Below, piece by piece: positions 4,022 to 60,736 of a stretch of DNA of 64,000 bases. Numbering within the stretch: position 1 is the stretch's first letter; every line of letters begins with the position of its first letter. Source of the DNA: a virus. The translations under genes were made by a program, and so were the position numbers. The notes below the pieces were generated by a model. The model searched no databases and was not told the origin of the DNA. It saw only the letters and a program-made list of their open reading frames with translations. The stretch is from the IMG/VR virus record IMGVR_UViG_3300044681_000369, positions 76,971 through 140,970 of that record; one strand, written 5' to 3'.

Positions 4022-4022
4022 A

Positions 4023-5349: not shown

Positions 5350-5350
5350 C

Positions 5351-6908: not shown

Positions 6909-6911
6909 GTA

Positions 6912-42701: not shown

Positions 42702-42889
42702 TCCTCAACCTCGTTTTGAATCTTGGTGAGTTCATCAGACAACTTAGAATATGCACGTTTCATCGCCTTTACGATTTTTGCCCGCTTCTTTTCGTCTTTT
42801 GTTTCAATTTCAACATTAATGTTTGCCGAAACTCCAGAGTATTCTCCTTCACCCGACAAAATTTCCTGAACGTAAACATTCACCGACAT
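42698..42889 (-). CDS. Small hypothetical protein (likely start MSVNVYV)
   Basis: GGAG RBS before ATG at about 42889; the upstream extension of the tracked ORF overlaps the tmRNA. Confidence 0.55.
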   Translation of the reverse strand: MSVNVYVQEILSGEGEYSGVSANINVEIETKDEKKRAKIVKAMKRAYSKLSDELTKIQNEVEE

Positions 42890-42919
42890 AATTATATCTC
42901 CACAGGTTAAATAAAAAAT

Positions 42920-43215
42920 GAGTGCTTCTGTTGCCAGGTGCACCCGAACCCCGTTCTAGCCTCAAGCGGCTAGAGCATAGCCTTCGTTATCGTTGGCAGT
43001 TATAAAATGACCACTCGGTCAGCGAATCAGTCTCGGTTTGTCCTATACAATCGCAGTCGATCCTGGTTCACCCCCATCATAGATACATGGCAGCCACCGT
43101 AGCAGCCGTTCTGGATTAACATGGTGTAAACAACATGCATAGCCATGTATCTATGGTGGAGGTGGCGGGAGTCGCACCCGCGTCCTACAATCTTTCAGTC
43201 TACGTCAACAACTGA
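42920..43215 (-). ncRNA. ssrA: Circularly permuted two-piece tmRNA, alphaproteobacterial type; tag ANDNEGYALAA
   Basis: Acceptor piece ending ...GCGGGTGCGACTCCCGCCACCTCCACCA (3' end 43154) precedes a hairpin spacer and the coding piece starting GGGGGTGAACCAGGATCGAC (43075). GGGGGUG/CACCUCC stem has G3.U70. Resume context ATAACT-GCC; tag ORF 42997-42962. Confidence 0.93.
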
Positions 43216-43220
43216 TTAGA

Positions 43221-43254
43221 TATTTAGTATATCTGAGTTTTTAGATATTGTCAA
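43221..43254 (-). promoter_or_regulatory. Overlapping sigma70 (TTGACA-17-TATACT) and late-type (CTAAATA) promoters for tmRNA
   Basis: TTGACA-ATATCTAAAAACTCAGA-TATACTAAATA. Confidence 0.75.
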
Positions 43255-44839: not shown

Positions 44840-45382
44840 TTATGAGACTCCATACCAGCTAGGAACTTCACGATTTTTCCATTTTGCCATATTATTTTTT
44901 GCACCAATATAATAGTTGCGATATGACTGCAATGAGTCGCCAGGAACTTTATATTGATCTGGCATCGCAGGTGTAGGCTGAGTCAAATGACTTACCGGAA
45001 TATTTTTGGGTGGCTTACGCAACCAATACACTAGGCGTTCGGTAGAATGTATCTTACCGTATCGATAAGTGTACTCTGCAAGGAGGGACTGGAATAAACA
45101 CATAAGCCAATTATAATTATTGTTAGATTGACGAACCCACACAGCACTCGGATGATTGATGTGTGTGGCCTTATAGAGTTCTCTATCAAGTGTACTATCC
45201 TCTAATCGCCAACGCCTGATTGATCTACCGTTGGCAGTTTTATCCGTGTATTCAATTCCATCAATAACACGATGCGCGGTAGATAGTAGTTGCGCATACT
45301 CCAGGATCATTTTAACAACATGCTTGTCATTGTGATATTCAGCACATTTGGCAACATCACGGTCCAAATAAAATATATTCAC
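44840..45382 (-). CDS. Pyrimidine dimer DNA glycosylase/endonuclease V-like protein
   Basis: 'MNIFYLD.....CA..H.DKHVVKM.LE.AQLLSTAH', 'H.NHP...W', 'EYT.RY.K.H', 'AMPD.Y'. Confidence 0.8.
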   Translation of the reverse strand: MNIFYLDRDVAKCAEYHNDKHVVKMILEYAQLLSTAHRVIDGIEYTDKTANGRSIRRWRLEDSTLDRELYKATHINHPSAVWVRQSNNNYNWLMCLFQSLLAEYTYRYGKIHSTERLVYWLRKPPKNIPVSHLTQPTPAMPDQYKVPGDSLQSYRNYYIGAKNNMAKWKNREVPSWYGVS

Positions 45383-45657
45383 TATATGTCAACCTCTTCA
45401 ACGGAATCTCGAATTGCTTTAACATGCGATTTTGCACTATTAGATAGTATATCAGATTGGTACGCAATGTCAAGACATTTCATGACATAAATTGGGTCCA
45501 AAACGCCCAAATCGTGAGAATTTAGTCTTTCCTCGGTGTTTCCAAAGGCATTTAAGCAAAAAAGCACCAGATCAACGTCTGCCTGGCTATATAGCGGAAT
45601 CCTATAGTGTCGGCGTTCCGTTGTGTACTTATTAGGAAACTTGACTACGTTATTCAT
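45382..45657 (-). CDS. Hypothetical protein
   Basis: ORF overlapping both neighbours (translational coupling); 'NVVKFP' N-terminus. Confidence 0.55.
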   Translation of the reverse strand: MNNVVKFPNKYTTERRHYRIPLYSQADVDLVLFCLNAFGNTEERLNSHDLGVLDPIYVMKCLDIAYQSDILSNSAKSHVKAIRDSVEEVDI

Positions 45658-46765
45658 GCAAGTATTTATCTGCCAACAGTTTATTCAACATCATTTTTGG
45701 ACCACTATTATGGCACAAAAAGTTATAGTGTGAATACTTGTCAAACTTATTGGCAGAGTTTATTGCATCTATAAGAGTTTCATGTGAAACTTTCTCTGGA
45801 GACACTATCTCTATATAATCTGAAACTAGCTGTGAACTAATTGCGTTTTCTCCGGTTTGAGGAATTGCAATTTGTGCCGCGTTTGTCCAAAAACATTTAC
45901 CCACAGTTCCCACCCCACCATGGTGTACAACAGCTTTTGCTTTGTTGAAAATTTTATGATGAGGAACAACTTTACGAATAACTTTAAAGTTTTCGGATTC
46001 TTTGATGGAACACGGTCCTAATACTAAAACAGGATAAGTTTCAGATATCTGCTTTGCAATTTCGTATAGATTGTTGGGAAACAAAGTATTTTTTGCTCCT
46101 GTTCCCATAGAAAATACGACTGGTCTTTTTCTTAGAAAGGACTCAACACTTTCTTGCAACTCATCTTTTTGAAGAAGAAAAAAGAAGTTAGTAAAATTGA
46201 TCTTGTCAATTATATCTGAGTTTTTAATTTTGTCAACATAAAATTTTGGTATATCCAAAAATATTGGATTTGATCTAGAGAATACATCCATGGATGTGGT
46301 CTCTTCTGGAGGCAAACCAATCTCTTCTCGTATTCTGTTCCATGGTCCTATTGTGACCTCTTGAAATCTCTTTTTACCTTCGTCTGAAATAAAGTATGCT
46401 AAGGACCCGCCAAACTCAACTCTAGGAATTTTGGTAAAGTCCGAATACAATGCGGCAAGAGGCATTGTAATCGGATCTCTAATTATTAATTCTGGGGCAA
46501 AAGAATCAGCAAAATCAAAGAATTGATGATATGCAGTTAAATTAAATAAATGATAATCACATAAAATCTTGCCAACATCATAATCATCATATGTTTTGGT
46601 GTGATGTGTTGATACTGCTTTAAATCCGTATTTTGTAATTTCGTTCAAAAACGAAGATTCAGTTATAAACAATACTTCATGACCCAAACTAGTTAACTCT
46701 TGGGCAAGCCTAATATAAAGAGCCACGTGACCATATGATCCATATACGGCTAACAATATTCTCAT
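45650..46765 (-). CDS. GT1/GT28-like GT-B glycosyltransferase
   Basis: 'GSYGHV....LA..L...GHEV', 'VFSMGT', 'VPH..IF....AVVHHGG.GT', 'IP'. Confidence 0.88.
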   Translation of the reverse strand: MRILLAVYGSYGHVALYIRLAQELTSLGHEVLFITESSFLNEITKYGFKAVSTHHTKTYDDYDVGKILCDYHLFNLTAYHQFFDFADSFAPELIIRDPITMPLAALYSDFTKIPRVEFGGSLAYFISDEGKKRFQEVTIGPWNRIREEIGLPPEETTSMDVFSRSNPIFLDIPKFYVDKIKNSDIIDKINFTNFFFLLQKDELQESVESFLRKRPVVFSMGTGAKNTLFPNNLYEIAKQISETYPVLVLGPCSIKESENFKVIRKVVPHHKIFNKAKAVVHHGGVGTVGKCFWTNAAQIAIPQTGENAISSQLVSDYIEIVSPEKVSHETLIDAINSANKFDKYSHYNFLCHNSGPKMMLNKLLADKYLHE

Positions 46766-48198
46766 GTCACAACTTTCACACCATAAAATTGCTCAAAGTC
46801 TTGAGCATCTCTTCTGTTATTTACCATAGGTTGTCCCTTAATATTCAAGCTAGTATTAAGTAACATTGGACAACCATAATTCTCATACATTTTTCTGAGT
46901 AATGTATACAGTCCTGGATGCTGATCAAAGTTTACAGTTTGTACACGGCTTGTTCCGTCACCATGAACAATAGCAGGATACTGGTCAGGAAATTTGCATC
47001 TTGCAGTAAACTGCATATAAGGGGATTCCTTAACTGGCATCTCAAAATATCGTTCTGCAAGTTCTTCCATGATAACCGGCGCAAATGGTCTAAATTTCTG
47101 TCTACGCTTAATTTCATTTACTCTATCCTTCATGTCTGATCGTGTGGGATCTGCAAGTAGTGATCTATTTCCTAAAGCTCTAGGACCAAATTCTGCTCTA
47201 CCATTGGCAACACCAACCATTCCGTTTGTTACCAGTTCGTGCATCAATTCTTTGACTGGATATGCTCCACCAATATTTTCTCCTAAATACGGACCATTCC
47301 AATCCAGATGTTCCTTGTTATTTGCCGCAATTGCACCTAGAGAACTTCCAGCGTCACTAGGATTAGGCATAATCCAGATGTTCTTAAAGTATTTTGTGGC
47401 AATATGATTTGCACTACAGTTTAAAGCACAACCTCCCATAAGAACAAGGTTTTCCTGATTTGGATCACTATCCTTTGCTCGTTTCAGAAGTTTCTCAAAC
47501 TCTTCTTCATACACCTTTTGGGCGGCAGCGGCAAGATCATATGGATGTGGTTCAGAATCACCTTTAGGATTCCACCATCTACAGCCCCGATGAAGATTTT
47601 GTGTGTCGTATAATTCCCGAGTTTCCGCATAAAATCTATCTGGATCACCATACGCAACCATTCCCATAAGAATATACTCATCTTCGTTCGGCTTCAAAGA
47701 TACTCTGTCGGTAATTGCTGAATAAAAAAGACCTAGTGATTTTGGATATTTCATTCTCCAAACTTTTTTGAGTTTGTTTGCATGACAGTGCCATATGGAT
47801 GCAGTATCAAACTCACCAATAGCATCAATAACAAGAGTTGTTGCTGATACCATTCCTGAAGTAAAATAACCCGCGGCCGCGTGTGACTCATGATGGTCAG
47901 CCATCTTAATCTTCACACCGGTAATTCCATATTTTGCAAGATAGTCTTTAGGATGAAAATAGACATATCCCATGCCACAAACAAATCTACGAAGCATTCT
48001 CATCCAAGAATTTTCATACCAATGAATTACATCGGGCTTACCAAATTGAAGCGCGGCAGAAATTAGAGAGGGACACAGGTCCTTATCATTTTTCTTTCCA
48101 CTATATCTTTCGGAATGAGATGCAAACAAAATCTTACTCCCGCTAACCACGGTAAGCGATGCATCATGGGCGCCAGCAGAAATTCCCCACTCAATCAT
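46762..48198 (-). CDS. Carbamoyltransferase (NodU/CmcH/TobZ family)
   Basis: 'HDAS', 'ER.S..KND', 'HH.SHAA', 'D.IGE', 'SLGLFY', 'MG...YG', 'GGCALN', 'EFGPRALGNRS.LADP', 'FRPFAP', 'LNTSLN'. Confidence 0.95.
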   Translation of the reverse strand: MIEWGISAGAHDASLTVVSGSKILFASHSERYSGKKNDKDLCPSLISAALQFGKPDVIHWYENSWMRMLRRFVCGMGYVYFHPKDYLAKYGITGVKIKMADHHESHAAAGYFTSGMVSATTLVIDAIGEFDTASIWHCHANKLKKVWRMKYPKSLGLFYSAITDRVSLKPNEDEYILMGMVAYGDPDRFYAETRELYDTQNLHRGCRWWNPKGDSEPHPYDLAAAAQKVYEEEFEKLLKRAKDSDPNQENLVLMGGCALNCSANHIATKYFKNIWIMPNPSDAGSSLGAIAANNKEHLDWNGPYLGENIGGAYPVKELMHELVTNGMVGVANGRAEFGPRALGNRSLLADPTRSDMKDRVNEIKRRQKFRPFAPVIMEELAERYFEMPVKESPYMQFTARCKFPDQYPAIVHGDGTSRVQTVNFDQHPGLYTLLRKMYENYGCPMLLNTSLNIKGQPMVNNRRDAQDFEQFYGVKVVT

Positions 48199-49687
48199 TA
48201 AAGTATTCCTCTAGTTGCGGAAAGGTATTTTTCCAATCTGTACCACGTCTCTTATCATGTTGGTCAAAGTGACTTAGTAAGTTTCTCTTGTGTCTAGGAT
48301 CAGTAACACGATGTTCTTTCATCCATTCCAGATTGCGCTTTAATTTATTAACCTCAAAATCATAAAATCCAATAAAGCCGTTTTCTGGATTTGCTTCCAT
48401 AAACTCAATAGCTTCTTCTAGATACTTTTCAAATTGTTCGGGCAAAGAGTTTATTGCCATCCAATCTGGATATCTCAATAATGGAATATCAAACCAAACA
48501 CGCTGTCTTGGATGAACCTCAAAATCTGGATGTTTATGGTTAGGATCAAAAATAGGAATATATTTTACACCCTGCTTTTCGTGACTGTATTTTGTTCTAA
48601 GTTCCAAAATATATTCAAGATATTTTTTGATACCAAACAAAGACAAGGTATTAAATGTGTTAATAAAATATATTGATGTGTTGCAGGTCTCAGATAAAAT
48701 TCTCTCAACATTTTCTTGCATGTAAGAATAATTCAGACCAGTTCTAATATATTCTGCTTGTTCACCTACGCTATCTAAACTCACATATACGGCAACATTT
48801 TTTAATGCCATATTAACATACCAATGATTGCCGGAACCAGGATTGAATCGTTCCTCGTCTTTCCAGATTTGGATCTCTTCTAGCTTCTGAAGTTTATCGA
48901 CAAACTTGTCCATAAGCTCTGGCTTAGGAGGACTCATATTGCTAGTTACAGAAACCTCTAGCCAAGCATTAGGATGCTCATAGATATAGTCCAAAACCTT
49001 ATATGTATTGCTGTCCATTAGCGGCTCACCACCAGTCATACGGAACACTTCTAGTTTCTTGTATAACTCTGGCCACCACCGCCAAAATGCAGTCAGATAT
49101 GGATTATCTGCTTGCTTGACTTTCAAAGGCATAAGCCCCTGTCTAGCAAGATATCCCATGTCATTGTGACCCTCAATTTGACCAGACGCATTCTCTATCT
49201 GCAACGGACCATGCTCTTTGATCTCATCTTCCCAAGTGGTACTTAGATGAGGCGAACAATACATACATTTAAAGTTACAAGCCTGGTTAAAGTTGACTTC
49301 CACATATCGTGGCGTCATATTGCCTACATCAAGGGCTTCAATAATATCGCTTCTGGAGTTTTGTGCCCAATCTTCTCCTGAGCGATATATTCTATCACTT
49401 CTGGCTCCAGCATCCTCAATTTTCCAACAGTAGGAGCAACCAGCTGGACGCTCACCAGAAAGCATCTGCTTACGCTCTTCTTTCTTTTGTTTTGTGTTGT
49501 GTAGTGCTGAAGGATTATCCTTCAACTCAAGAACATCAATCTTGTGTGTTGGTGGATGGTAGCAACTGTGTGTCATGCCATTGGTCAAGTGCATAGACAC
49601 CTGTGACCATTTAGCATAACACATGCTACTAGAAATGCGTCTTAATTGATTTTCGGCTTTAGTCGCGGCATCATCATATATGCTCAT
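48191..49687 (-). CDS. Radical SAM protein with N-terminal twitch-like Cys cluster, paralogue 1
   Basis: CNFKCMYC, TGGEPL; N-terminal C..KW...SCYHP...CSYCW. Confidence 0.9.
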   Translation of the reverse strand: MSIYDDAATKAENQLRRISSSMCYAKWSQVSMHLTNGMTHSCYHPPTHKIDVLELKDNPSALHNTKQKKEERKQMLSGERPAGCSYCWKIEDAGARSDRIYRSGEDWAQNSRSDIIEALDVGNMTPRYVEVNFNQACNFKCMYCSPHLSTTWEDEIKEHGPLQIENASGQIEGHNDMGYLARQGLMPLKVKQADNPYLTAFWRWWPELYKKLEVFRMTGGEPLMDSNTYKVLDYIYEHPNAWLEVSVTSNMSPPKPELMDKFVDKLQKLEEIQIWKDEERFNPGSGNHWYVNMALKNVAVYVSLDSVGEQAEYIRTGLNYSYMQENVERILSETCNTSIYFINTFNTLSLFGIKKYLEYILELRTKYSHEKQGVKYIPIFDPNHKHPDFEVHPRQRVWFDIPLLRYPDWMAINSLPEQFEKYLEEAIEFMEANPENGFIGFYDFEVNKLKRNLEWMKEHRVTDPRHKRNLLSHFDQHDKRRGTDWKNTFPQLEEYFND

Positions 49688-49702
49688 AATATATCCAATT
49701 AA

Positions 49703-49816
49703 TTAATCGTAAATAAAGGGGTCTTGCTTTCTCAACTCTTCAAGTCTTTTCTTAATCTGTTTTTCACGCTTTCTGCGCTCAAACCAATCTCGAATCTTTT
49801 GTACTAATTTTTTCAT
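49703..49816 (-). CDS. 37-aa basic peptide ending DPFIYD (missing from ORF track)
   Basis: MKKLVQKIRDWFERRKREKQIKKRLEELRKQDPFIYD; ATGA overlap with upstream gene; fills the intergenic gap. Confidence 0.7.
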   Translation of the reverse strand: MKKLVQKIRDWFERRKREKQIKKRLEELRKQDPFIYD

Positions 49817-50781
49817 TTCATTTGTCCTATAATGTACTGTGCGGCAAGTTTGTGTGAAAGTTTACCATGATGAACCATATCTCTTGCCCTGTCTGTTCTT
49901 GTCCCCACTGGATCAAGTGCAACTGGCAAGTGACAATTTACAATTTTTGCGGCATCTGGATAAAAACTAAACTCTATCAATTTTGTTTTGCCTTTTAGCA
50001 ATGCCCTAACAGTTCTGGCAGTATACTGAGTTTGCACATGTGCATGATATTTATTGCTGTTGTAAAAGTATAAAAAATTTTGATCATCGGTGTTTTTGCC
50101 AAAATTTTTTGTGTTGAAATGACCAAAACTCCATGCACCTAGATTTAATGCGTCACTGTTTCTAAAGTATGTTGCTCTATCAACACATGTCCAACCAATA
50201 ACAACATATTTTGGAAAATCTGCTGGATGAACAGTTTCAATTAGAGCAACAACGTTCTTCAAAATAGTATCATTAGAACCTGACGGATATCCAAAGTTTA
50301 TAGGAACGGCTTGTGCCTTAGTTGCAACTAAAGATGTAACTACATCTTCTTCATTTAATCCTACACCAAAAACACTAGAGCAACCAAAAAATGGAATAGT
50401 CTTGTTCCACTCAGTTATTGAGTCGAACTCCACAGTCCTGTATCCCATAGAATTTATGTTGTATGAAATCTCTTTATCATAATATTCCCAAGTTTTGCCA
50501 AACTGTTCCTTGTGTTTAGCATGTTCATTTGGTCCATCAGTCTGACAATATCTGCTATCTATCGCACCCATTTCGGTCCTATATAGTAAAGACCTGTTAA
50601 ATTCAAACTTATTTTTTCTGTGATACGCTAGATATATTGGATAATGGAATCCTGGCTCAAAGAAGCCAGCAACAGTCTCATCTTTTGGGGTCGGAGAATA
50701 ATCCATTTTCTCTGCAGGAGCAGACGAATATATGACCAGATTGGAAATATACTGAGACAGGATGTCTTTTGTCAGAGACAC
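49813..50781 (-). CDS. SGNH/GDSL-like protein
   Basis: 'N..GYR..EF', 'FFGCS..FG.G', 'NFG...GSN', 'ARD..H.G'. Confidence 0.7.
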   Translation of the reverse strand: MSLTKDILSQYISNLVIYSSAPAEKMDYSPTPKDETVAGFFEPGFHYPIYLAYHRKNKFEFNRSLLYRTEMGAIDSRYCQTDGPNEHAKHKEQFGKTWEYYDKEISYNINSMGYRTVEFDSITEWNKTIPFFGCSSVFGVGLNEEDVVTSLVATKAQAVPINFGYPSGSNDTILKNVVALIETVHPADFPKYVVIGWTCVDRATYFRNSDALNLGAWSFGHFNTKNFGKNTDDQNFLYFYNSNKYHAHVQTQYTARTVRALLKGKTKLIEFSFYPDAAKIVNCHLPVALDPVGTRTDRARDMVHHGKLSHKLAAQYIIGQMK

Positions 50782-51821
50782 AAATGTTTTTCCTTCAGCA
50801 AAAATTCATACAAAGACATTGCAATTGCTGTATGACCATATTCTGATGGATGGGAACACTTTGACCAATACTTATTAGGACTACCAGTTTTTATATATTT
50901 TTGAAAATATTGAAAATCTTTTTCCGGTGGTGCGCCTGTCTCAACTGTTTCGACTATTTCCGAAATTGTTTTGCAACCATCAATAACGATATATTTATCC
51001 CAAGGATGCTGTTCATACATCAGTCGAAGTCTCTTGCTATTTTCATTACTTCTTTTATGATTGAGAACTTGTTCCTGATTTGTAATTCCTTCGGTTGGAA
51101 GTTCTTTTGGAATATGTCTATACATAAATCCATCTTTTTCATAGAAATTGTCAAATGCTGGCATAATAAACAATTTTGCATTGTATGTTTTACACCAAAG
51201 TCTTAGAATTTCTACTGCATGATAGTATTCCTGTATGACATGAGTTTCACTCCATGCAGCCATAGCATAGGCTTTCCAAAGATCACCTTCAACGCCCGTT
51301 ACTCCTGTGCCGAAATGTGGCCATATAGTTTTGTGTGAGAAATGTTCCGATACATGTGGTGCTGCCATGTCGTATCTGTCAATTCCTGTAGGAAAAAACA
51401 TGACAATAATATCTTCCAAACTGGAATAATCAAACTCGGAAAATCTAAACAAGTTCATTATACTCGCTTTATTTCCATTTCCCTTCATACCAAAATTTAT
51501 GGGAGTATATTTGTTTTTTAAGTATTTGCTACACAGAACATTAGTAAACGCATTATCAAATTCCATTTTAGTGAAGTCAATGGGATTTTCTTCACTTGGC
51601 GTTTTAGCAAGTCTTGGATATTTCTTTAAAACATCTTCAAGACACCGTGAATCTCCGGCAAAACACATGGTATTTGACTTGTTTAATTTAAACGGATATT
51701 TGTCAACAATTTCCTGATCCATAGATCCTTGTCCTTGAACAAATGAACAGCCCAAGGTAATAATTGCTTTTTTTGTCCGCTTTAAACTGTCAACGGTCTC
51801 TTGTACTTGACACTCAAGCAT
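50772..51821 (-). CDS. SGNH/GDSL-like protein
   Basis: 'LGCSFVQGQG', 'NFG..G.GN', C-terminal 'HPSEYGH..IA'. Confidence 0.7.
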   Translation of the reverse strand: MLECQVQETVDSLKRTKKAIITLGCSFVQGQGSMDQEIVDKYPFKLNKSNTMCFAGDSRCLEDVLKKYPRLAKTPSEENPIDFTKMEFDNAFTNVLCSKYLKNKYTPINFGMKGNGNKASIMNLFRFSEFDYSSLEDIIVMFFPTGIDRYDMAAPHVSEHFSHKTIWPHFGTGVTGVEGDLWKAYAMAAWSETHVIQEYYHAVEILRLWCKTYNAKLFIMPAFDNFYEKDGFMYRHIPKELPTEGITNQEQVLNHKRSNENSKRLRLMYEQHPWDKYIVIDGCKTISEIVETVETGAPPEKDFQYFQKYIKTGSPNKYWSKCSHPSEYGHTAIAMSLYEFLLKEKHLCL

Positions 51822-53112
51822 TGAAATAGTCTCCTACATGTTTCTCAAACGTGAGATATGCCTCAGGAAGAATATCTCTAGAATTTTTTCTAAGCACTTC
51901 TCTATTGTGTTCTAAAATATCCGATACCGACTTATACCATTCAAGTTTATCTTCTACTTTATGGAACTTGTGTAACGAATCGGTAATTGCTACCATTCTT
52001 TCCCAAGTATTTAGTGTGTCATACGTTTCGTCTATAAAAGGATGAAAAGTTTTATAACCCATCTCTCGTATGTAGTGTAGAGAGTTTTTATTACCCCATA
52101 TCATAAATGGATGATAGCACATGATTGGTTTAAAGGTCTTTTCGCTAATAAAACAAGTATTGTCTCCATCGGCAAAAGATGCCTCACTGACAACAGATAT
52201 CCAACTGTCAAGCATGATATCATCTGTAAATCTTGTTATATAATAACCATCATCTTTAACATTGTTCGGCTCATTAACAAACATAGGAAGATGTCTGTTC
52301 AAAACTTCAACATGACTTTCAGATATGCAGGTTCCTTCCATCCAAGTATTAATATGATTGAAAGGATTCATGTTAATTAAGCCAAATCCTAAAACACCAG
52401 AATCATGGAACTGCTTAAACCCCCACATACGATGACTGCGCAATCGTTTCTGTAGAAAGTTATAGTCTTTTATTTTTCCAAGATTATCAGTTTTGTACTT
52501 TAACTGATCTTCTAACGTTGGTAAAGGATTATTTTCAAATCTTCTTCTATTAAATCCAGTCTCAAATATCATATGCTCAAAATGTGTGTGAGGTATAACT
52601 TTAACCTTACTAACGACACCTAGAGTTTTACACCAAGTCTGATATTGATTGTTCGCTAAAAGATTACCTGTAACGTATATAACTGAGCCACTAGGCAAAG
52701 AAAATTTAGACATAGCTTGGTGAAACCAGTCCCAAAGCCACTCACTCTGATACCCTTCATGAGACTGATCTATGACAAGAATTGCTTTGCCAGTCTTCAT
52801 GTCTTCTAGATATCGTTCATTTAGAAAGGAGAATAGACACTCACGTTTAATTTGTCGTTGACTCAGATATGGTGCACCACACCATTCTTCTGGGCTTTGA
52901 GCAACTCCTACACCAATAACATACTTACCCTGAGCATCCTCAAAATTACATTTTTTATAGTTAGAAATATCAATGTTTGTAAAGTATTGCCTAAGACTTG
53001 CATGCCTCAACACTCTTGTTGTGAAGGGGCAAGGAATAAATCTATTCTCATCGGTACAGCTAATGAAGTTTAGTTCTCTATGCTGTGCCTCAAACGCAAA
53101 TTCAATATTCAT
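51814..53112 (-). CDS. Putative glycosyltransferase-like protein (GT-B/GT10-like)
   Basis: 'R.HR', 'SVVSE', 'FISEKTFKPI...HPF...G....L..I..MGYKTF...IDE.YD', 'LEHN'. Confidence 0.55.
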   Translation of the reverse strand: MNIEFAFEAQHRELNFISCTDENRFIPCPFTTRVLRHASLRQYFTNIDISNYKKCNFEDAQGKYVIGVGVAQSPEEWCGAPYLSQRQIKRECLFSFLNERYLEDMKTGKAILVIDQSHEGYQSEWLWDWFHQAMSKFSLPSGSVIYVTGNLLANNQYQTWCKTLGVVSKVKVIPHTHFEHMIFETGFNRRRFENNPLPTLEDQLKYKTDNLGKIKDYNFLQKRLRSHRMWGFKQFHDSGVLGFGLINMNPFNHINTWMEGTCISESHVEVLNRHLPMFVNEPNNVKDDGYYITRFTDDIMLDSWISVVSEASFADGDNTCFISEKTFKPIMCYHPFMIWGNKNSLHYIREMGYKTFHPFIDETYDTLNTWERMVAITDSLHKFHKVEDKLEWYKSVSDILEHNREVLRKNSRDILPEAYLTFEKHVGDYFNA

Positions 53113-53113
53113 A

Positions 53114-54115
53114 TTACATTTTCTTCTCAGACCAAGTTTTTGGCGTTTTCTCGTTTACGATCTCTAAATTTACAAAATGATTAAATGGCTTTGCGCCTTC
53201 TTGCTTAATCCAACTTACAGTTTTCTGTATTGATTCAATTAGTGTTGCGCTTGGATTATAAGCCAACAACTTTCGTGCCTTGTCTGCACTACAATTTGCA
53301 TGTCTAACTTCTTGTGGTCTTGCAGGAATATGAATTGGTTCAATATCGCAATTCATTTCTTTTAGAATTAAAGAAGCCAGTTGATTAATAGTTACTTCGC
53401 CAGCATCTGGTCCAATATTAATTGTTTCACCAACAATAGACTTGTCAAACAATACTGGCATGATACAATCAATACATTCATCTACATATGAAAAGCAACG
53501 AATTTGCTCACCATCACCATAAATGTATATAGGTAATCCTTGAAGTGTTCTATTGATCATAATGCTCATTACATTACGATACGGATCTGTATAGCATTGT
53601 CTTGGTCCAACAATGTTATGTGGTATAACAATATTATACTCCATACCATGAACCGCTGACAAGACTTTTAGTGTATCTTCCACTGCAACTTTCGAAATTG
53701 CATATGGATCAACCGGAGCCGGTGGCATGTCTTCTGTAAATGGAGCTGGATTGTTGCCATATCTTGCCATACTGCTACAGAAGACAAAACGCTTAACACC
53801 GGCAGATATTGCGGCGCTAATTGTTGAGACTGATGCCTGATAGATGTTAGTTGTGATAAATGATGGAGAAAATATACTTAATCCCTCATGCGCAGTTGCG
53901 GCAGCATGAAAAACAACATCTACGCCATGCATCAATTCTTTCATGGTGTCAAAATCACAACAATCGGCAAATTGGAAGTCCACATTACAGGGAACATTCG
54001 CAAGTTCACCTCCCATAAGATTGTCATTACCAACAACCTCATGTCCTTCCGACAAAAGTCTTTCGCATAGGTGACTACCCAAAAAGCCAGCCGCGCCAGT
54101 AACTAAAACTTTCAT
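53114..54115 (-). CDS. NAD-dependent NDP-sugar epimerase/dehydratase
   Basis: GAAGFLG, HAAA, SSMA.YG, YAISK (YxxxK), N.VGP, GDG.Q.R.F.YV. Confidence 0.93.
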   Translation of the reverse strand: MKVLVTGAAGFLGSHLCERLLSEGHEVVGNDNLMGGELANVPCNVDFQFADCCDFDTMKELMHGVDVVFHAAATAHEGLSIFSPSFITTNIYQASVSTISAAISAGVKRFVFCSSMARYGNNPAPFTEDMPPAPVDPYAISKVAVEDTLKVLSAVHGMEYNIVIPHNIVGPRQCYTDPYRNVMSIMINRTLQGLPIYIYGDGEQIRCFSYVDECIDCIMPVLFDKSIVGETINIGPDAGEVTINQLASLILKEMNCDIEPIHIPARPQEVRHANCSADKARKLLAYNPSATLIESIQKTVSWIKQEGAKPFNHFVNLEIVNEKTPKTWSEKKM

Positions 54116-54118
54116 GTA

Positions 54119-55537
54119 TTAACCTCTATCCGTTGCAATAATGTTATCGCTTAGTGACTTACACTCATTCCAGAATTTTTCCATGTCTGGAAACGTCTCT
54201 AAGAAGTTCGTATTTCTTCGGCGATCTAGTTCAGTAAACCATCGATAAAAATCTTTTCTGCCTTCCATTACCTTGTCTTGTTCGTAGTTGTGATTTGCAA
54301 AATAATCACGAACTCGACGGAAACGCTCATATTCTAGATTTGAGAATTTCTTACAATCGCTCTCGTCTCTGTTATCATCAATAAACTGCAAAATCTTATC
54401 AAAATACGGAAGATATTCTTCTTTTGGCAAAATGTGCATATCATATTGAAGTGGTTCCTTCAAATAAGGAGTATCAAATCGAATTTTTCTTGTTTCTGGA
54501 TATTTAGGATCAAAAACAGGAATAACATCATCATACTTCTGTCTCCATTCCAAAACCTTTTCCAGGAAAGAAATAAATGAAGTTACAGAAAGAATATTGA
54601 AGGTGCACATAAACGTAACATGAGTTTTTGCGGTGCGAACAAAGGTATCCAAATTTTCTTCCCAAAGAGGCAATTTTAACCCTGTGCGCAAATACTCTGC
54701 TCTGTCACCCCAAGTGTCCATAGAACTAAAGAGTTTGAACTTTTTAATGTGACCTTTGCCAACAAGCACGTTGACTTCTTCGCCTAATTTTTGAACCAAA
54801 GAATTTTTAACGCCAAGGTTGCTGTTTAAATTAATTTCTAGATGGGGTTTTGAATCTGCCTTCAATTCATCAAAAGTTCTCCATGTTGATTTGTGGAGAA
54901 GCGGTTCGCCGCCAGTAATGCGTAGAATACTCAAAGTTTTGGACATTTCTGGCCACCAACGGAACCAAGCATCAATATATGGGTTTTCGTCTTCTTCCAT
55001 CTTCTTGATGTAGTCGATATCAAGAGCATGGTTTTTTACCATATGGAAAGGACCATGCTTTTTGATTTCCGCATAAAAACTACTACTTACGGCTGGGTGA
55101 CAGTAACCACACTTAAAGTTACATTCATTGCTGAATGCCATTTCGATATACTCTGGATTGATATTCATATCCCAAGGAGCATCGACAATTTCTTTCATCC
55201 GCTCTGGTGTGTAAATTGAGGTATTTCTGATCATACGATCTGAAATGTGGTCTGATCCCATACCCTCAACGTTCCAGCAATATTGACAACCCTTAGGCTT
55301 TGCGCCCACAAGCATCTCAGCACGTTCTTTTTTCTTAGTGCTTGTATTATGCAGTGCGGCAGGATTTATCTTGATTTCTTCTACAGAAATATCATGGGGT
55401 CTTGGATGATAGCAACTATGCGTCTGCCCAGAATACATGTAGATTGAAGTGTGGTGCCATTTTGCTAGACAAAATGTAGGGCTTACCTCATCTGTAATTT
55501 TGATAATATCTCGGATACGATTTACGTCATCACTCAT
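54119..55537 (-). CDS. Radical SAM protein with twitch-like Cys cluster, paralogue 2
   Basis: CNFKCGYC, TGGEPL, N-terminal CLAKW...SCYHP...CQYCW. Confidence 0.9.
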   Translation of the reverse strand: MSDDVNRIRDIIKITDEVSPTFCLAKWHHTSIYMYSGQTHSCYHPRPHDISVEEIKINPAALHNTSTKKKERAEMLVGAKPKGCQYCWNVEGMGSDHISDRMIRNTSIYTPERMKEIVDAPWDMNINPEYIEMAFSNECNFKCGYCHPAVSSSFYAEIKKHGPFHMVKNHALDIDYIKKMEEDENPYIDAWFRWWPEMSKTLSILRITGGEPLLHKSTWRTFDELKADSKPHLEINLNSNLGVKNSLVQKLGEEVNVLVGKGHIKKFKLFSSMDTWGDRAEYLRTGLKLPLWEENLDTFVRTAKTHVTFMCTFNILSVTSFISFLEKVLEWRQKYDDVIPVFDPKYPETRKIRFDTPYLKEPLQYDMHILPKEEYLPYFDKILQFIDDNRDESDCKKFSNLEYERFRRVRDYFANHNYEQDKVMEGRKDFYRWFTELDRRRNTNFLETFPDMEKFWNECKSLSDNIIATDRG

Positions 55538-56870
55538 TGGCTTCTCTCACACATTCTTGTAAAAAGTTTGATAACTCAGGAAAGGTCTCGTTAAAATTTA
55601 AATTACTGCGTCTATCGTACTCCGGGAAAAACTTACCAAAGTCTTTCCTGGCATTAGTACGATATTCTTCGGAAATGGCGTGGGAATCATTATAAAAATA
55701 GTCTCGCACTCTTTCCATCTTATTAATTTCAATTTCTGAAAAGTATTTATGCGACCGCATAAAGTCTACACAATCGATAATATACGTTCCAAAGTCCTTA
55801 GGCAAGATGTTCATTGTCCAATGCGGCGGCTCTTTAAGGTGTGCAATGTCTAGAGTAATTCTATCTCCCCATTTTTCACGCAACTGCACAACCAGCTTTA
55901 AGAAGTCTTTGAAATATGGCACAGTAAGAACATTATATGTGGTCATAAAGCTCAAATAGCCAGTAGGAACTGTTTCCAAGAATGTATTAATATTTTCTAA
56001 AAACAACTCATAGTTTAATCCCCTACGCATATACTCAGCTTGCTTGCCGGTGCATTCTAGGCTGGTAAACAATCTAATATTTTTGATATGCTTGGTTTCA
56101 ATTAAACCTTGAACCCTAGTTACAAATTCTGTAACCCGGCGATTTGTGACTCCCATGTTTGTATTAATCTGGAGAAACAGATTGCTGTTTCCTTCTTCCT
56201 CTAGCATATCAATTAGCTTTGATGTATGTCTAGAGATTAACGGTTCACCGCCAGTGATACGAAATATCTTTAAGTCTTTCTTTAAGGATGGCCACCATTT
56301 CCAAAACGCTTCAACGTATGGATTATACTCTTTATCAGAATATATTCCATCCCAAAGATTATATTGACCATCTTTAATGTCATACGGACCATATTGCTTT
56401 ATTTCATCTTCCCACAGTGATGAAAACGATGGACAACAGTAGCCGCACTTGAAGTTGCAAGCGTTACTAAAACTAATTTCCATGTTATACGGATTTACAT
56501 CAACGTCCCACGGCAAATTGCGTAGAACTTCTGTTTCTTCATTAACATCAAACAGTTGATTGACGTTATCGATATTTTTAACATAACGATCTGAAACATT
56601 GCCCATATCTTCAATGTTCCAGCAATATGAACATTCCTGAGGGCGACCACCCTCAAGCATCATCTTGCGCATTTGTTTTTCGTGAGAAGTGTTATGAAGT
56701 GCGGCAGGATTCTCTGCTATCTCGTTTAGTGGGATATGGAGAGGTGGTGGATGATGGCAACTATGCTTGTGTCCAGTCTGTAGATATAATGCCAACCAAC
56801 GCCATTTTTGTGGACAGAATCCTGGACCAACATCATTCAATACATTCTTAACTGGAATTTTATTAGTCAC
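55530..56870 (-). CDS. Radical SAM protein with twitch-like Cys cluster, paralogue 3
   Basis: CNFKCGYC, TGGEPL, N-terminal CPQKW...SCHHP...CSYCW. Confidence 0.9.
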   Translation of the reverse strand: MTNKIPVKNVLNDVGPGFCPQKWRWLALYLQTGHKHSCHHPPPLHIPLNEIAENPAALHNTSHEKQMRKMMLEGGRPQECSYCWNIEDMGNVSDRYVKNIDNVNQLFDVNEETEVLRNLPWDVDVNPYNMEISFSNACNFKCGYCCPSFSSLWEDEIKQYGPYDIKDGQYNLWDGIYSDKEYNPYVEAFWKWWPSLKKDLKIFRITGGEPLISRHTSKLIDMLEEEGNSNLFLQINTNMGVTNRRVTEFVTRVQGLIETKHIKNIRLFTSLECTGKQAEYMRRGLNYELFLENINTFLETVPTGYLSFMTTYNVLTVPYFKDFLKLVVQLREKWGDRITLDIAHLKEPPHWTMNILPKDFGTYIIDCVDFMRSHKYFSEIEINKMERVRDYFYNDSHAISEEYRTNARKDFGKFFPEYDRRSNLNFNETFPELSNFLQECVREANE

Positions 56871-56995
56871 TTAGTCTTCTTTTTAAAAAATCCAATGTCT
56901 TGCAAAAATTTCCATGAGGAAATAAGAGCAAAAAATACGGATGCTCCAACAACACCATAAACAAAGGTGACGAATATGAATTCAATAATAGCCAT
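56867..56995 (-). CDS. 42-aa single-TM membrane peptide (missing from ORF track)
   Basis: MAIIEFIFVTFVYGVVGASVFFALISSWKFLQDIGFFKKKTK; overlaps both neighbours. Confidence 0.6.
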   Translation of the reverse strand: MAIIEFIFVTFVYGVVGASVFFALISSWKFLQDIGFFKKKTK

Positions 56996-57183
56996 TATCT
57001 TTTAAACCACTCGTTAATAAGAATTGAACATGCATTATGTGGCGGATAGTCTACACCGAATCGATCAAGTGCTTCCGAAGATATAATCCATCCAACGTGA
57101 AAGTTAGTTAATCGACTGGAGTTAAACATACCCATGGACATCATCTTTTTGGCAAATCGAAATCGCCAGAATAAGGTTTTCAT
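56995..57183 (-). CDS. Hypothetical protein
   Basis: TAATG-coupled ORF. Confidence 0.5.
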   Translation of the reverse strand: MKTLFWRFRFAKKMMSMGMFNSSRLTNFHVGWIISSEALDRFGVDYPPHNACSILINEWFKR

Positions 57184-57566
57184 TAATTTCTTCTCATTTG
57201 TGAGATTTCTTTTGCTTGCTCTTCGTTGATGATAGGAACAGCATTAGATTTATGCATCGTGGCTATACCCTTAATCAACGTGCCCGTATACTGCATGGTC
57301 TCTTTCTTCGCAGTTGATCCACCCATGCTGAATACGCTCGGATACTTTTCTCGGTGTTCCCTAGACAATCGATCAAACACAGTTTCTTCCCTAACGTAAG
57401 GTTTGAACTCTTGCTTTACTTTAAGTTTTCCGTGTATCTTATCTATATATTGATCTAGCGTAAGCGGCTGCAGCCTACACCGCTTCATTAGCTTATTGTA
57501 ATCTTTATGCTCTGCTTCCCACTTGGCAAGTTTAGCTTTAGTAATCTTTATGGATTTATGGGGCAT
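57183..57566 (-). CDS. Conserved phage hypothetical protein
   Basis: C-terminal 'YTGTLIKGIATMHKSNAVPI...A.EIS.MRR' motif seen in T4-like phages. Confidence 0.65.
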   Translation of the reverse strand: MPHKSIKITKAKLAKWEAEHKDYNKLMKRCRLQPLTLDQYIDKIHGKLKVKQEFKPYVREETVFDRLSREHREKYPSVFSMGGSTAKKETMQYTGTLIKGIATMHKSNAVPIINEEQAKEISQMRRN

Positions 57567-57580
57567 TTTTAGCTTGTCCT

Positions 57581-57588
57581 TATAAATA
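57581..57588 (+). promoter_or_regulatory. Late promoter TATAAATA for membrane protein pair
   Basis: Exact consensus upstream of 57686..58299. Confidence 0.6.
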
Positions 57589-57595
57589 CTATACT

Positions 57596-57624
57596 ATAGT
57601 AGCATACCTGCCCGCCAAACACAA
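57596..57624 (-). promoter_or_regulatory. Possible sigma70 (extended -10) promoter heading the radical SAM operon
   Basis: TTGTGT-17 nt (ending TGC)-TACTAT. Confidence 0.45.
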
Positions 57625-57697
57625 GACTTTTTTGGACCTTTATTTCGGCTGTAAACCGTTGAATTTGCTATAATTTTTACGGAGCTTGCCGAGTAAC

Positions 57698-57994
57698 GTG
57701 GACGAAATTTTTAAACTTATAGCAGACGTAGGTACACCTATTGCCAGCTCTTTGGCAATGGGGTTTTTCATTTTCCTCGCAATCAAACAACTTCTAGTGG
57801 GTATAGTAGAGCAGGTTAAAACGCTAACCATGTTCTGCAAGTCTTTGGAAAATCGTGCGACTACAATGAGCAACGAAATGATAAAAATCGACTTGCTTGT
57901 CAGTAGCGCATTAGACCTTAGACCAGATACCGATCGTATTTCCAGAGCCGAAAACTTTATAGAAGACGGTAAAGTAGACGCAAGGAGAGATTGA
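57698..57994 (+). CDS. Membrane protein, holin-like candidate (likely GTG start)
   Basis: One N-terminal TM 'VGTPIASSLAMGFFIFL', then coiled coil. Confidence 0.55.
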   Translation: MDEIFKLIADVGTPIASSLAMGFFIFLAIKQLLVGIVEQVKTLTMFCKSLENRATTMSNEMIKIDLLVSSALDLRPDTDRISRAENFIEDGKVDARRD

Positions 57995-58299
57995 TGGAAG
58001 GTATAGCAGAGTTAATTAGCCAGTTTGGTTTCCCAATAGTAGCTATGGTAGCTATAGCATATTTTATCTATTTCATATGGACATTCATAAATGAGCATCT
58101 TGGTCCAGCATTAAACGAAATGCAGATAGCTCTAGTTCGTGTTATCGATAAGACTCGTATGCTTGATCAAGATATGATCCGACTTCAACAGAAAGTTAAT
58201 GTTGTGTTAGAGTACAGGGAAGCACAAAAGATTTTTAGAGAAACTCTTAAAGATAAAGAACTTGAAGAGTTAAACAAAAAAGTAAACGAAATAAAATAA
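57991..58299 (+). CDS. Membrane protein, holin-like candidate (paralogue of the previous gene)
   Basis: 'QFGFPIVAMVAIAYFIYFIW' TM segment, then coiled coil. Confidence 0.6.
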   Translation: MMEGIAELISQFGFPIVAMVAIAYFIYFIWTFINEHLGPALNEMQIALVRVIDKTRMLDQDMIRLQQKVNVVLEYREAQKIFRETLKDKELEELNKKVNEIK

Positions 58300-58684: not shown

Positions 58685-58713
58685 ATAATAGCAAGGCTAT
58701 ATAGGAAAGTCAA
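58685..58713 (-). promoter_or_regulatory. Sigma70-type promoter for HTH gene
   Basis: TTGACT-17 nt-TATTAT. Confidence 0.7.
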
Positions 58714-59660
58714 GAGATTTTTGTAAAATTCTTTATTTCCATACCCATACTATACTTGGCATCATCAGGAAGTTGTACCAAGGACAGTCCATAGTCATTG
58801 GTACCGGTAGGTAGAACTACACCAGGCTTGAGCCTCAGCTTGTTCTTCTTGAATGGGGTATAGTCAACAAAGTGATGCCACCGACCGTACTTCCAGACAA
58901 CCCTAGCCACGTCCGGGTGCATATCAACAAGCATTTGAGACTTGTTGATGGTACCCTTCTCATGGTATCTCTTACCTTCGATTTCCTCACCATCTTCGAG
59001 GAACTCTTTGTGGTAAAACTCGTCGGTATTGCCACCCTTGATTGTCTGGGTGGCAACCTTGCCTTGTAGAAAAGCATTAAACTGTACAGTGCAGTTACCG
59101 TCCTTCAATACACGGAGGCAGATATCGGTGTCTTCATTGTAGCGTCCACGCCAGCGGTGCGGACAATCGTTGCGAATAAGCAAACATGAGTAAATGCGAG
59201 TATTTGCCACATACGGCGGATACTTCTGATTGGGTGCAATGAAGAACCGATACTGAGGACCAGCGATATACAGGTTCTCATAGCGATCAAAGAAGTCTTC
59301 CATGATCTTAAACATCACACCAGACTCAACACGGATTCTTTCATTCCTATGCAGTCGGTAAAAGTCTGAAAGATTGTCATCCATTACCCAATGTGCATCA
59401 TGACCAGTTGCGATTGAGTGATCCCAAGCCCAGTTTCTGGCACGACCTGGACCATCACCATGATTGCTGAACGGCGCAACTAGGAGGGTAACATAGTCGG
59501 AAAGACCAAAGTTTACCAGAGCATCCTTGTACGGCTGTTCATCTTGAGGCTCAATAATGATGTAATGTGGCACCTTCATGCGAGTCAGTGACCGCGAGGT
59601 AATCATAGTGTCAGCACGACCTTTAGAAACAATGTAAACTGGATACTTAGGATTTGTCAT
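58710..59660 (-). CDS. TET/JBP-associated glycosyltransferase (TAGT/GREB1-like GT-A)
   Basis: 'YPVYI.SKGR', 'G.G.ARN..WDHS', 'HWVMDDN', 'NTRIYSC.LI', 'WRGRYNEDTD..LR.LK.G.CT', 'GGNT'. Confidence 0.8.
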   Translation of the reverse strand: MTNPKYPVYIVSKGRADTMITSRSLTRMKVPHYIIIEPQDEQPYKDALVNFGLSDYVTLLVAPFSNHGDGPGRARNWAWDHSIATGHDAHWVMDDNLSDFYRLHRNERIRVESGVMFKIMEDFFDRYENLYIAGPQYRFFIAPNQKYPPYVANTRIYSCLLIRNDCPHRWRGRYNEDTDICLRVLKDGNCTVQFNAFLQGKVATQTIKGGNTDEFYHKEFLEDGEEIEGKRYHEKGTINKSQMLVDMHPDVARVVWKYGRWHHFVDYTPFKKNKLRLKPGVVLPTGTNDYGLSLVQLPDDAKYSMGMEIKNFTKIS

Positions 59661-60736
59661 TAAAATAAACCACTCAAGGAATTTGATGAATACCGAGAAT
59701 AACTGTCGGCGAACATCTTATTTAGGTTCGCAACCCAGTTGTCCTTAGAATGCTTTTGTTTAGTTCTATAACTTATATCACACCTTTGCTCATAAGTCAA
59801 GTCTTTTAATTCATTAATTACCGAACACAGTTCTTCGGTGGAAACCGACGTTGAAACCATTCTATAGTCAGTTTCCCTGTCAGCAATACACTGACTACCA
59901 TGAGTTCCAGTCGAATCCGTTACCAATATCAGTGGAAGCCCTCTAGTTAGTGCTTCCAGCGCGGTAATACCCCAGGATTCGACTGGACACGTTGAAACAT
60001 AGACCTTTCCAGTCGCTAACATCGACATGGTAGTCTTATGGTCTGAATTTTTTACGGTAAATCGCGGACATCCCCATTTTTCGTTGCATCTTGCATACTC
60101 CAACTGCTGGATAGACTGAAAAAGTGGGTCGGAAGTCAACACGCACGTTGTCAAATCGCTTCCGTTGACCTTTTTGTGAAGAAAAAACGGATTTTTAGTC
60201 GGATCCGAGCGTCCAACAGTGATTGCATCATATCTTTTGTTGTTGGAAACTTCTTCCAAGCCGTCGGAAAAGCAAGAATTGACATATCCTCGAACTTTTT
60301 CGACTTTATGACCAAGAATTCTCTCGGAAATAGCATCAAATTTCGATTTTTGATCTTCGGAAACAAAATAAATTGATCCTTGGTTGTCTGTAAACTCTTT
60401 CATAGCTTTAACAGACTCAACATTATAGATGGATCTGATGCCAGGCGAGTGATTTAGCCAAATAACCGGCAAATCATACTTCTGAAATCCTACGGTATAT
60501 GTTGCGTTGAAGTGATTTGTAAAGATGATGTCTGGATTATGCTCATTTACTGCCCTCTGCATAACAGAAGACACGTTTCTATTCATCCTATCTTCATAGG
60601 AAATATAAACTGGTATCACATTGTCAATGTTTTTGTAAACCAGCTTCTGAAACATCTCAACTCCACCTAAAATGGTGTCGCTATCTAAAGAGACGTTCTT
60701 GCCCTCATGCTGGATGACAGGCATCAATATCTTCAT
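59660..60736 (-). CDS. GT4-like GT-B glycosyltransferase
   Basis: 'GGVE', 'VGR.DP.KN', 'ESWGITALEAL..G.P' (E-x7-E). Confidence 0.85.
   Translation of the reverse strand: MKILMPVIQHEGKNVSLDSDTILGGVEMFQKLVYKNIDNVIPVYISYEDRMNRNVSSVMQRAVNEHNPDIIFTNHFNATYTVGFQKYDLPVIWLNHSPGIRSIYNVESVKAMKEFTDNQGSIYFVSEDQKSKFDAISERILGHKVEKVRGYVNSCFSDGLEEVSNNKRYDAITVGRSDPTKNPFFLHKKVNGSDLTTCVLTSDPLFQSIQQLEYARCNEKWGCPRFTVKNSDHKTTMSMLATGKVYVSTCPVESWGITALEALTRGLPLILVTDSTGTHGSQCIADRETDYRMVSTSVSTEELCSVINELKDLTYEQRCDISYRTKQKHSKDNWVANLNKMFADSYSRYSSNSLSGLF

Follow-up and report, generated by a model that had tools for sequence, protein, structure and literature searches.

Radical S-adenosylmethionine (SAM) enzymes of the twitch and SPASM types that act on sugars, such as BtrN, DesII, BlsE, and AprD4, combine a radical SAM core bearing CxxxCxxC and GGE motifs with a second cysteine-rich cluster domain that lies C-terminal to it. 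In phages, a carbamoyltransferase is known to act on 5-hydroxymethylcytosine (5hmC; PMC8670742), pairs of epimerases and glycosyltransferases (GTs) glycosylate 5hmC in DNA (bioRxiv 10.1101/2023.12.21.572611), and systems built on TET and the TET-associated glycosyltransferase (TAGT) have also been described (PMC8256090). In pelagimyophages, the hypervariable region for host recognition carries radical SAM cassettes together with glycosyltransferases (PMC7029224). Here we describe an operon on the minus strand at positions 45650-56995 of a 64,000-nucleotide stretch of viral DNA (the window; positions 76,971 to 140,970 of IMG/VR record IMGVR_UViG_3300044681_000369) that encodes three radical SAM paralogues (rSAM_A, rSAM_B, and rSAM_C) alongside an epimerase, two GTs, two SGNH-like proteins, and a carbamoyltransferase. 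We read this island as a group of phage genes for glycan tailoring, centred on the uncharacterised enzyme family NF033640, and the operon most likely makes an edited sugar decoration whose target is probably not DNA. Like the pelagimyophage region, the island belongs to an aquatic phage of the T4-like type and gains and loses radical SAM genes in the manner of a cassette; the earlier report merely records the presence of these genes, however, and the operon described here is a small T4-like version that stands outside the fibre module.

The 64-kb window is the final stretch of a 140,970-bp contig with a CheckV completeness of 86%. Its source is an uncultured, aquatic, distant T4-like myovirus. 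Methylophilales, Pelagibacter, and Synechococcus phages encode counterparts of its baseplate wedge protein that share 32-35% identity with it, the figure for Pelagibacter and Methylophilales phages being 34%. We found no cultured relative within a collection of 50,697 phage isolate records, against which a megablast search with the whole 11-kb island returned zero matches. When rSAM_A was compared with the phage isolates by tblastn, the sole genuine match was in Ralstonia phage RsoM2USA, where the neighbouring genes are all annotated as 'hypothetical protein'.

A first-pass annotation, made from the letters and open reading frames (ORFs) of the window, had described an 11-kb coupled operon of eleven genes, and the ORF listing confirms this: eleven co-directional ORFs follow one another so closely that neighbours overlap by 4-10 nt or stand 1-15 nt apart. 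Listed in the direction of transcription, they encode a 42-aa hydrophobic micro-ORF (56867-56995), which looks from its sequence like one transmembrane helix and overlaps the GTG start codon of the next gene, rSAM_A (55530-56870), rSAM_B (54119-55537), an extended short-chain dehydrogenase/reductase (SDR) resembling nucleoside diphosphate (NDP)-sugar 4-epimerases (53114-54115), a 432-aa GT of the GT-B fold resembling GT10 fucosyltransferases (51814-53112), two SGNH-like proteins of 349 aa (50772-51821) and 322 aa (49813-50781), a 37-aa basic micro-protein ending in DPFIYD whose gene is joined by an ATGA start/stop overlap (49703-49816), rSAM_C (48191-49687), a 478-aa O-carbamoyltransferase of the NodU/CmcH/TobZ family (46762-48198), and a divergent GT1/GT28-like glycosyltransferase (45650-46765).

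The three radical SAM proteins share 34-42% pairwise identity and are members of the NCBIfam family NF033640 (N_Twi_rSAM), scoring 301 (rSAM_A), 294 (rSAM_B), and 328 bits (rSAM_C) against a cut-off of 170, with matches that cover approximately positions 1-398, the full model; rSAM_A also matches Pfam Radical_SAM. This family has a name only, and a full-text search for its name or accession found no paper on it in the library covered. Alignment of the three paralogues bears out exactly the unusual N-terminal cysteine motif that the first-pass annotation had placed ahead of CNFKCxYC, with invariant C19..K22 W23, S37 C38 x H40 P41, C80 x Y82 C83 W84, and C138 N x K C142 x Y C145. In a wider alignment of 47 diverse members (rSAM_C numbering), C23, C84, and C87 of the N-terminal cluster (residues 23-87) are invariant and C42 nearly so, and the CxxxCxxC motif that follows at 137-144 is invariant (C137, C141, and C144), with the GGE motif also kept. 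The resulting spacing, C-x18-C-x41-C-x2-C, is one that we take to resemble the four auxiliary-cluster ligands of BtrN, and in a related 370-aa member of NF033640 the Pfam SPASM model matches residues 24-84. The proteins nevertheless differ from BtrN, DesII, BlsE, and AprD4 in that the auxiliary domain is N-terminal rather than C-terminal, and they show no sequence-level membership of those families; the NCBIfam matches to MoaA, viperin, and QueE are weak, the MoaA model scoring 34 bits against a cut-off of 284. An AlphaFold model of rSAM_C (predicted local distance difference test score, pLDDT, 90.2) was compared with known structures using VIA, which revealed matches to BlsE (Z 13.5), SkfB (13.4), anSME (12.7), MoaA (12.5), viperin (12.1), and DesII (11.6), with PFL-AE and SuiB within the same range of 11.6-13.5, while BtrN was absent among the matches listed. 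The MoaA score is tied with those of about ten unrelated radical SAM classes. The N-terminal 126 residues found no structural counterpart in this search, and Foldseek with the radical SAM model gave weak generic matches and nothing more. As the structure search finds only the core, and the auxiliary domain is N-terminal, the earlier assignment to the BtrN/MoaA class was not upheld, and a 'dehydrogenase/epimerase' role is an analogy rather than evidence.

The carbamoyltransferase and the epimerase, both proposed previously, are recovered by Pfam. The former matches Carbam_trans_N (113.9 bits versus a threshold of 24; 1.5e-32) and Carbam_trans_C (176.2 versus 27; 5.6e-52), as well as phrog_1601 (5.5e-95), and its PDB matches, 7xb6, NovN, GdmN, and TobZ (1.4e-49 to 1e-36), are all O-carbamoyltransferases. 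It thus carries both domains of the TobZ/NodU/NovN/GdmN enzymes above the cut-offs, but is shorter than these (478 versus ~570-700 aa) and falls far below the cut-off of the NodU equivalog NF041651 (143 bits versus 1000). The SDR matches PF01370 (Epimerase) with 167.7 bits (3.8e-49) and its best PDB match is the UDP-glucose 4-epimerase 4zrm (4e-46); it scores under every NCBIfam equivalog cut-off, including that for GalE (TIGR01179; 101 bits versus 262).

No match to the 432-aa, 349-aa, or 322-aa protein was found in Pfam (E up to 10), PHROGs, or NCBIfam, and the profile of the 432-aa family gave no match to PDB sequences. The AF2 model of the 432-aa protein (pLDDT 92.5) adopts a GT-B fold of two Rossmann domains, for which Foldseek returned 41 GT-B enzymes at E up to 1e-3 and VIA returned the alpha1,3-fucosyltransferase 5zoi (Z 12.0 over 275 residues, root-mean-square deviation 4.7), T4 BGT (Z 11.7), and FUT9 (Z 11.0). 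Residues R228, E324, K325, and K328 are invariant in its family, which also keeps the motif F(I/V)(S/T)EKTFK..PF..G, the 'TEK' part of which is presumably GT10-like. The second GT, which stays below the threshold of every GT1/GT28 model, is suggested by matches to the Pfam families Glyco_transf_28 and EryCIII and to NCBIfam MGT (1.3e-12). These results agree with the two GTs proposed at first pass, as do the following for the two SGNH proteins. SGNH blocks I (GxS), II (G), III (GxN), and V (H with or without D) are present at S26, G111, N117, and H324 of the 349-aa protein, in which block I reads GCS, and at S135, G164, N170, D301, and H304 of the 322-aa protein, which carries a 130-aa N-terminal extension. 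Across 25 homologues of the former, G24, S26, and H324 are invariant and N109, G111, G116, and N117 nearly so; across 18 homologues of the latter, G133, S135, G164, S169, D301, and H304 are invariant and N170 nearly so. The two proteins are homologous to one another (hhalign, 96.8%), and the six best matches of the 322-aa profile in the PDB are all SGNH/GDSL esterases, although weak (E 0.0095-0.6); a paralogue of the 322-aa protein encoded at 62227-63093 matches Lipase_GDSL_3 at 0.008.

The 37-aa micro-protein also recurs. ORFs ending in (R/N/H)DP(F/Y)IY are found in 15 related loci, near-identical contigs included, and in all ten loci with mapped neighbours such an ORF lies just upstream of rSAM_C or of the carbamoyltransferase; the product may be an accessory subunit.

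The first-pass annotation had named co-occurrence in other genomes as the test of its proposal, and the core of the operon recurs in approximately 20 related IMG/VR loci. At least 136 relatives of rSAM_C are present in IMG/VR, and in a clade of 60-75% identity (L002-L036, a series that includes some near-duplicates) the gene order is rSAM_B, SDR, GT-B, SGNH, SGNH, rSAM_C, (carbamoyltransferase), orf91, (denV), PhoH, PDDEXK, and cell-wall hydrolase, the genes in brackets being those present in some loci. Where enough upstream sequence is available (n = 22), rSAM_B and the GT-B are each present in 20 loci and the SDR in 15, and of the two SGNH genes the first is present in 19 and the second in 13; in 14 of 33 loci, rSAM_C is followed by the carbamoyltransferase. 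Two genes of the operon stand outside this recurring core. rSAM_A is rare within the clade that holds the sugar genes, while its orthologues in the nearest relatives of the phage are 66-74% identical, and the GT1-like protein, which has a single match (94%) among 5.8 billion proteins, has a relative in none of 80 loci. The earlier proposal of a pathway that builds and tailors a sugar stands as the best-supported reading, but the genes form a mosaic rather than one fixed pathway.

The nearest phages judged by other genes are five genomes, G006-G010, one of which (G009; 171.6 kb) is 100% complete. Their flanks match those of the operon, with orf127 upstream and the carbamoyltransferase (68-70%), denV (87%), and PhoH downstream, and between these flanks the relatives keep only radical SAM arrays together with the carbamoyltransferase. 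Comparison with this complete relative shows that the locus is a fast-changing, hypervariable cassette island, in which the radical SAM genes and the carbamoyltransferase are the constant elements within this lineage. In more distant phages, mostly represented by large contigs, up to 8-9 radical SAM paralogues stand head to tail, and some of these arrays include or adjoin a SAM synthetase, a 2-oxoglutarate oxygenase, a SPASM radical SAM gene, or a methyltransferase-like gene recognised by sequence motif. Many lie directly behind fibre-like genes (with an E1_FCCH domain, with a Peptidase_G2 IMC domain, or encoding a Ser/Thr/Gly-rich 317-aa protein) and also GT-A-like genes, and relatives of the GT-B (clusters 25 and 62) likewise stand alongside distant arrays. 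The blocks upstream of the distant arrays (L055 clusters 15, 6, 12, 4, 3, 2, 11, and 1; L051 cluster 9) were mostly unannotatable. The SAM synthetase gene (MetK) found inside the arrays of some large phages is complete (L038:12368-13516 and relatives; cluster 39), which is consistent with a heavy demand for SAM, as if the array supplied its own co-substrate.

Outside the immediate relatives the family is very large. A profile search of 1.84 billion representatives yielded 9,455 clusters at 50% identity (E up to 1e-30), and in the ESM Atlas the clusters listed as look-alikes are 97-100% viral. Many members of 790-1466 aa (P0005-P0036 and P0058) give two or three distinct matches to the radical SAM profile along their length, a pattern suggestive of fusions between two or three radical SAM modules. 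A pattern-limited scan of 185,579 bacterial species genomes found 27 loci, approximately 20 of which are in metagenome-assembled genomes (MAGs) of Bdellovibrionota. Three Bdellovibrionota genomes of 1.9-4.1 Mb hold 12-17 NF033640 genes each (G011, L193-L196; G012, L197 and L198; G015, L199), with the expansion peaking at 16-17 copies in genomes of 1.9-2.7 Mb, including 16 on a 1.9-Mb chromosome. The carbamoyltransferase - radical SAM arrangement is repeated in three Bacteriovoracaceae/Bacteriovoracales MAG loci (L097, L100, and L103), the annotated one of which (L097) reads GT4, x, x, carbamoyltransferase, GT4, N_Twi_rSAM, and N-terminal-SPASM radical SAM. With housekeeping genes set aside, the families that occur three times among 128 bacterial neighbours are carbamoyltransferase, GT2, and GT4, and at one Bdellovibrio MAG locus an ABC-2 transporter adjoins the radical SAM gene. 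One Bdellovibrionota array stands beside a PhoH-like gene, as in the phages. PhoH, which adjoins the island in phages and one Bdellovibrionales array, was considered as a pathway partner and left as a coincidence, with no further evidence.

From these gene identities we infer a possible order of chemistry. The SDR 4-epimerase would turn an NDP-hexose of the host into its epimer, and the fucosyltransferase-like GT-B, together with the extra GT1 in the source phage, would move the sugar onto an acceptor. Each of the three radical SAM enzymes might then abstract hydrogen from a specific sugar C-H bond, with the N-terminal four-cysteine cluster serving as a second redox centre, to give oxidised, epimerised, or otherwise rearranged sugar residues. 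The two SGNH proteins could attach or strip O-acyl groups, and the TobZ-type enzyme would draw on carbamoyl phosphate and ATP to O-carbamoylate a free hydroxyl, the DPFIY micro-protein perhaps acting as an accessory. We see roughly an even chance that the island, as a set of soluble cytoplasmic enzymes, assembles the glycan of a virion or host-envelope glycoconjugate and alters it chemically in this way. The tight gene packing, the recurrence of the core in related phages, the GT4, carbamoyltransferase, and ABC-2 transporter genes found near bacterial homologues, the distant arrays that follow fibre-like genes, and the pelagimyophage cassettes (PMC7029224) count in favour of such glycan tailoring.

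Several observations weigh against this interpretation. Between the conserved flanks, G006 and G009 carry 4-6 radical SAM genes without the SDR, GT-B, or SGNH genes, the Bdellovibrionales have pure radical SAM arrays of 7-8 genes without sugar genes, and many of the bacterial neighbourhoods consist of housekeeping genes; such pure arrays imply that the radical SAM enzymes need not act on sugars. The structural matches of rSAM_C are limited to the generic core (residues 127-461) with the classes tied, so that the fold points to no substrate. In addition, the island lies between orf127 and denV/PhoH and not beside fibre genes, the fibre and baseplate proteins of the window being encoded at 8168-30050, and no T4-type late promoter (TATAAATA) occurs on the coding strand within or just upstream of the operon. 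The arrays free of sugar genes would be explained if the radical SAM enzymes acted not on sugars but on a nucleotide or on a protein, for example a fibre, and merely shared a variable island with the sugar genes. Their nearest structures do include peptide-modifying (SkfB, SuiB, and anSME) and nucleotide-acting (viperin, MoaA, and BlsE) enzymes, in line with the weak NCBIfam matches, and the position of the distant arrays after fibre-like genes would fit a protein substrate. However, the arrays are packed gene to gene with no space for precursor peptides, the radical SAM genes bracket the SDR, GT-B, and SGNH genes in the window and in approximately 20 relatives, and their constant partner is a carbamoyltransferase whose solved relatives all O-carbamoylate sugars or polyketide hydroxyls; we therefore regard a non-sugar substrate as improbable. 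If the product is an edited glycan, its acceptor is tentatively a virion protein, which would be assembled in the cytoplasm and which we favour over a glycan precursor of the host envelope, itself a rather unlikely acceptor. This leaning follows from the operon lacking any polyprenyl-phosphate transferase, flippase, polymerase, or ligase, and from the N-termini that were read by eye, in which neither a signal peptide nor a membrane anchor is obvious. Remodelling of the host envelope, in which host NDP-sugars are diverted so as to change the O-antigen, the capsule, or another glycan of the surface and superinfection or the re-adsorption of progeny to debris is blocked, would be in keeping with the polysaccharide-type contexts of the bacterial homologues and with the sigma70-like, rather than late-type, promoter that precedes the operon. 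Known phage seroconversion systems, though, use membrane proteins of the Gtr/Oac type, whereas the enzymes here all look soluble and Pfam and NCBIfam searches found no polyprenyl-phosphate glycosyltransferase, flippase, polymerase, ligase, or membrane acyltransferase in the operon. The GTs neighbouring the pelagimyophage cassettes were read as envelope-directed (PMC7029224), yet for the present operon we consider this outcome rather doubtful.

The remaining candidate target is phage DNA, with the sugars, carbamoyl, and acyl groups ending up on a base and a TAGT taking the first step. The first-pass annotation held that the window could not say whether the acceptor was DNA, virion, or host surface, but the window and its relatives together disfavour DNA. 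What invites the idea is a second sugar operon on the minus strand (63987-58352), which runs off the contig end and encodes a left-handed beta-helix protein with hexapeptide or YdcK repeats, an SGNH paralogue, a second SDR epimerase/dehydratase, a 204-aa protein (60733-61347), a GT4, a TAGT (58710-59660), and a winged helix-turn-helix protein. The TAGT is full-length (PF20691, 152.7 bits versus 27.5; 1.7e-44), lies 2 kb upstream of the radical SAM operon, and stands beside the GT4 and second SDR. With its carbamoyltransferase, epimerase, GTs, and nearby TAGT, the phage therefore resembles the systems that carbamoylate or glycosylate 5hmC (PMC8670742; PMC8256090; bioRxiv 10.1101/2023.12.21.572611), but the genes that make 5hmC or 5-hydroxymethyluracil were not found in the contig or the complete relative, and the TAGT belongs to another operon. 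Our searches detected no Tet_JBP, thymidylate-synthase-family (PF00303, hydroxymethylase), or C5-methyltransferase gene in the 141-kb contig, the Tet_JBP search having been run without a positive control and 14% of the source genome being missing, and neither Tet_JBP nor the thymidylate-synthase family in the 100%-complete, 171.6-kb G009. The TAGT and its conserved partner, the 204-aa gene, are core genes of the aquatic T4-like group, present as a pair at over 72% identity in at least 421 IMG/VR contigs. Aeromonas phages Aeh1, 65, and phiAS5, Tenacibaculum phage PTm1, and Vibrio phage Kuja carry homologues that are 45-52% identical. The usual setting of the pair is among genes that have their counterparts ~40-60 kb away on the present contig, far from radical SAM genes, and five other contigs with the radical SAM core have no TAGT. 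In the window, a strong bidirectional terminator at the end of the second operon (58330-58295) and a divergent gene pair keep the two operons apart. Finally, in the MetaGPA study the carbamoyltransferases of unmodified contigs were those flanked by GT group 1 genes (PMC8670742). The adjacent TAGT, tried as a lead to DNA glycosylation, is thus a red herring given its core status, separate operon, absence from the five contigs, and the lack of TET or hydroxymethylase genes, and DNA hypermodification by the operon is very improbable.

The boundaries of the transcription unit extend beyond the eleven genes first described. Its true start is orf127 (57183-57566, minus strand), followed by a small ORF, orf62 (56995-57183), and coupling continues past the GT1 through orf91 and a denV-like gene (44840-45657), both conserved flank genes that are translationally coupled to the operon end and probably not part of the sugar pathway. 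Library searches gave no family match for orf62 or orf127. The latter lies upstream of the radical SAM genes in the nearest relatives (L111-L119, L191, L192, L003, and L036) and was considered as a substrate or regulator, although the search yielded merely a conserved C-terminal motif, YTGTLIKGIATMHKSNAVPVI..RMRRG. A sigma70-like sequence, TTGTGT-17-TACTAT, can be read upstream of orf127; as the scan for sigma70 promoters and terminators was not enriched over shuffled sequences, we rely only on the strong terminator at 58330-58295. Counts of TATAAATA over the whole window were likewise not above chance. Its only plus-strand copy in the window precedes two 102-aa ORFs (57581-58299), one of which has weak sub-threshold matches to the membrane-protein families DUF6106 and DUF4131, and both of which the nearest relatives retain (43-52%), with the radical SAM operon on one side and the TAGT gene on the other. 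In L191 and L192 (from G006 and G009), ~7 kb of extra genes lie between this plus-strand pair and orf127, so the region upstream of the island is likewise variable. Elsewhere in the window, ARAGORN predicts a permuted tmRNA (42871-43246, minus strand; tag ANDNEGYALAA), and a Pfam search of a GT-A island at 1766-8085 gave nothing useful.

Taken together, the analysis adds to earlier work the small T4-like island away from the fibre genes, its cassette nature, the dismissal of the adjacent TAGT as a lead, and the expansion of NF033640 in Bdellovibrionota. Speculatively, and we think it somewhat unlikely, NF033640 could comprise enzymes of a new class that edit glycans, or glycosylated structural proteins themselves, by radical chemistry, with aquatic phages and predatory Bdellovibrionota shuffling cassettes of up to 8-9 paralogues, each making a different C-H modification, to diversify the surface of attack against host or prey recognition, and with carbamoylation as the constant final step in the lineage of the source phage. 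Sugar genes of phages are usually written off as LPS-related auxiliary genes, and this compact operon ties such genes to a very large radical SAM family. With three radical SAM enzymes, one epimerase, two GTs, two SGNH proteins, and one carbamoyltransferase, it is a small and tractable version of these islands. Solving the chemistry of its radical SAM enzymes would give function to thousands of viral genes, and could reveal a new modification of virion or cell-surface glycans relevant to host range and to competition between phages.

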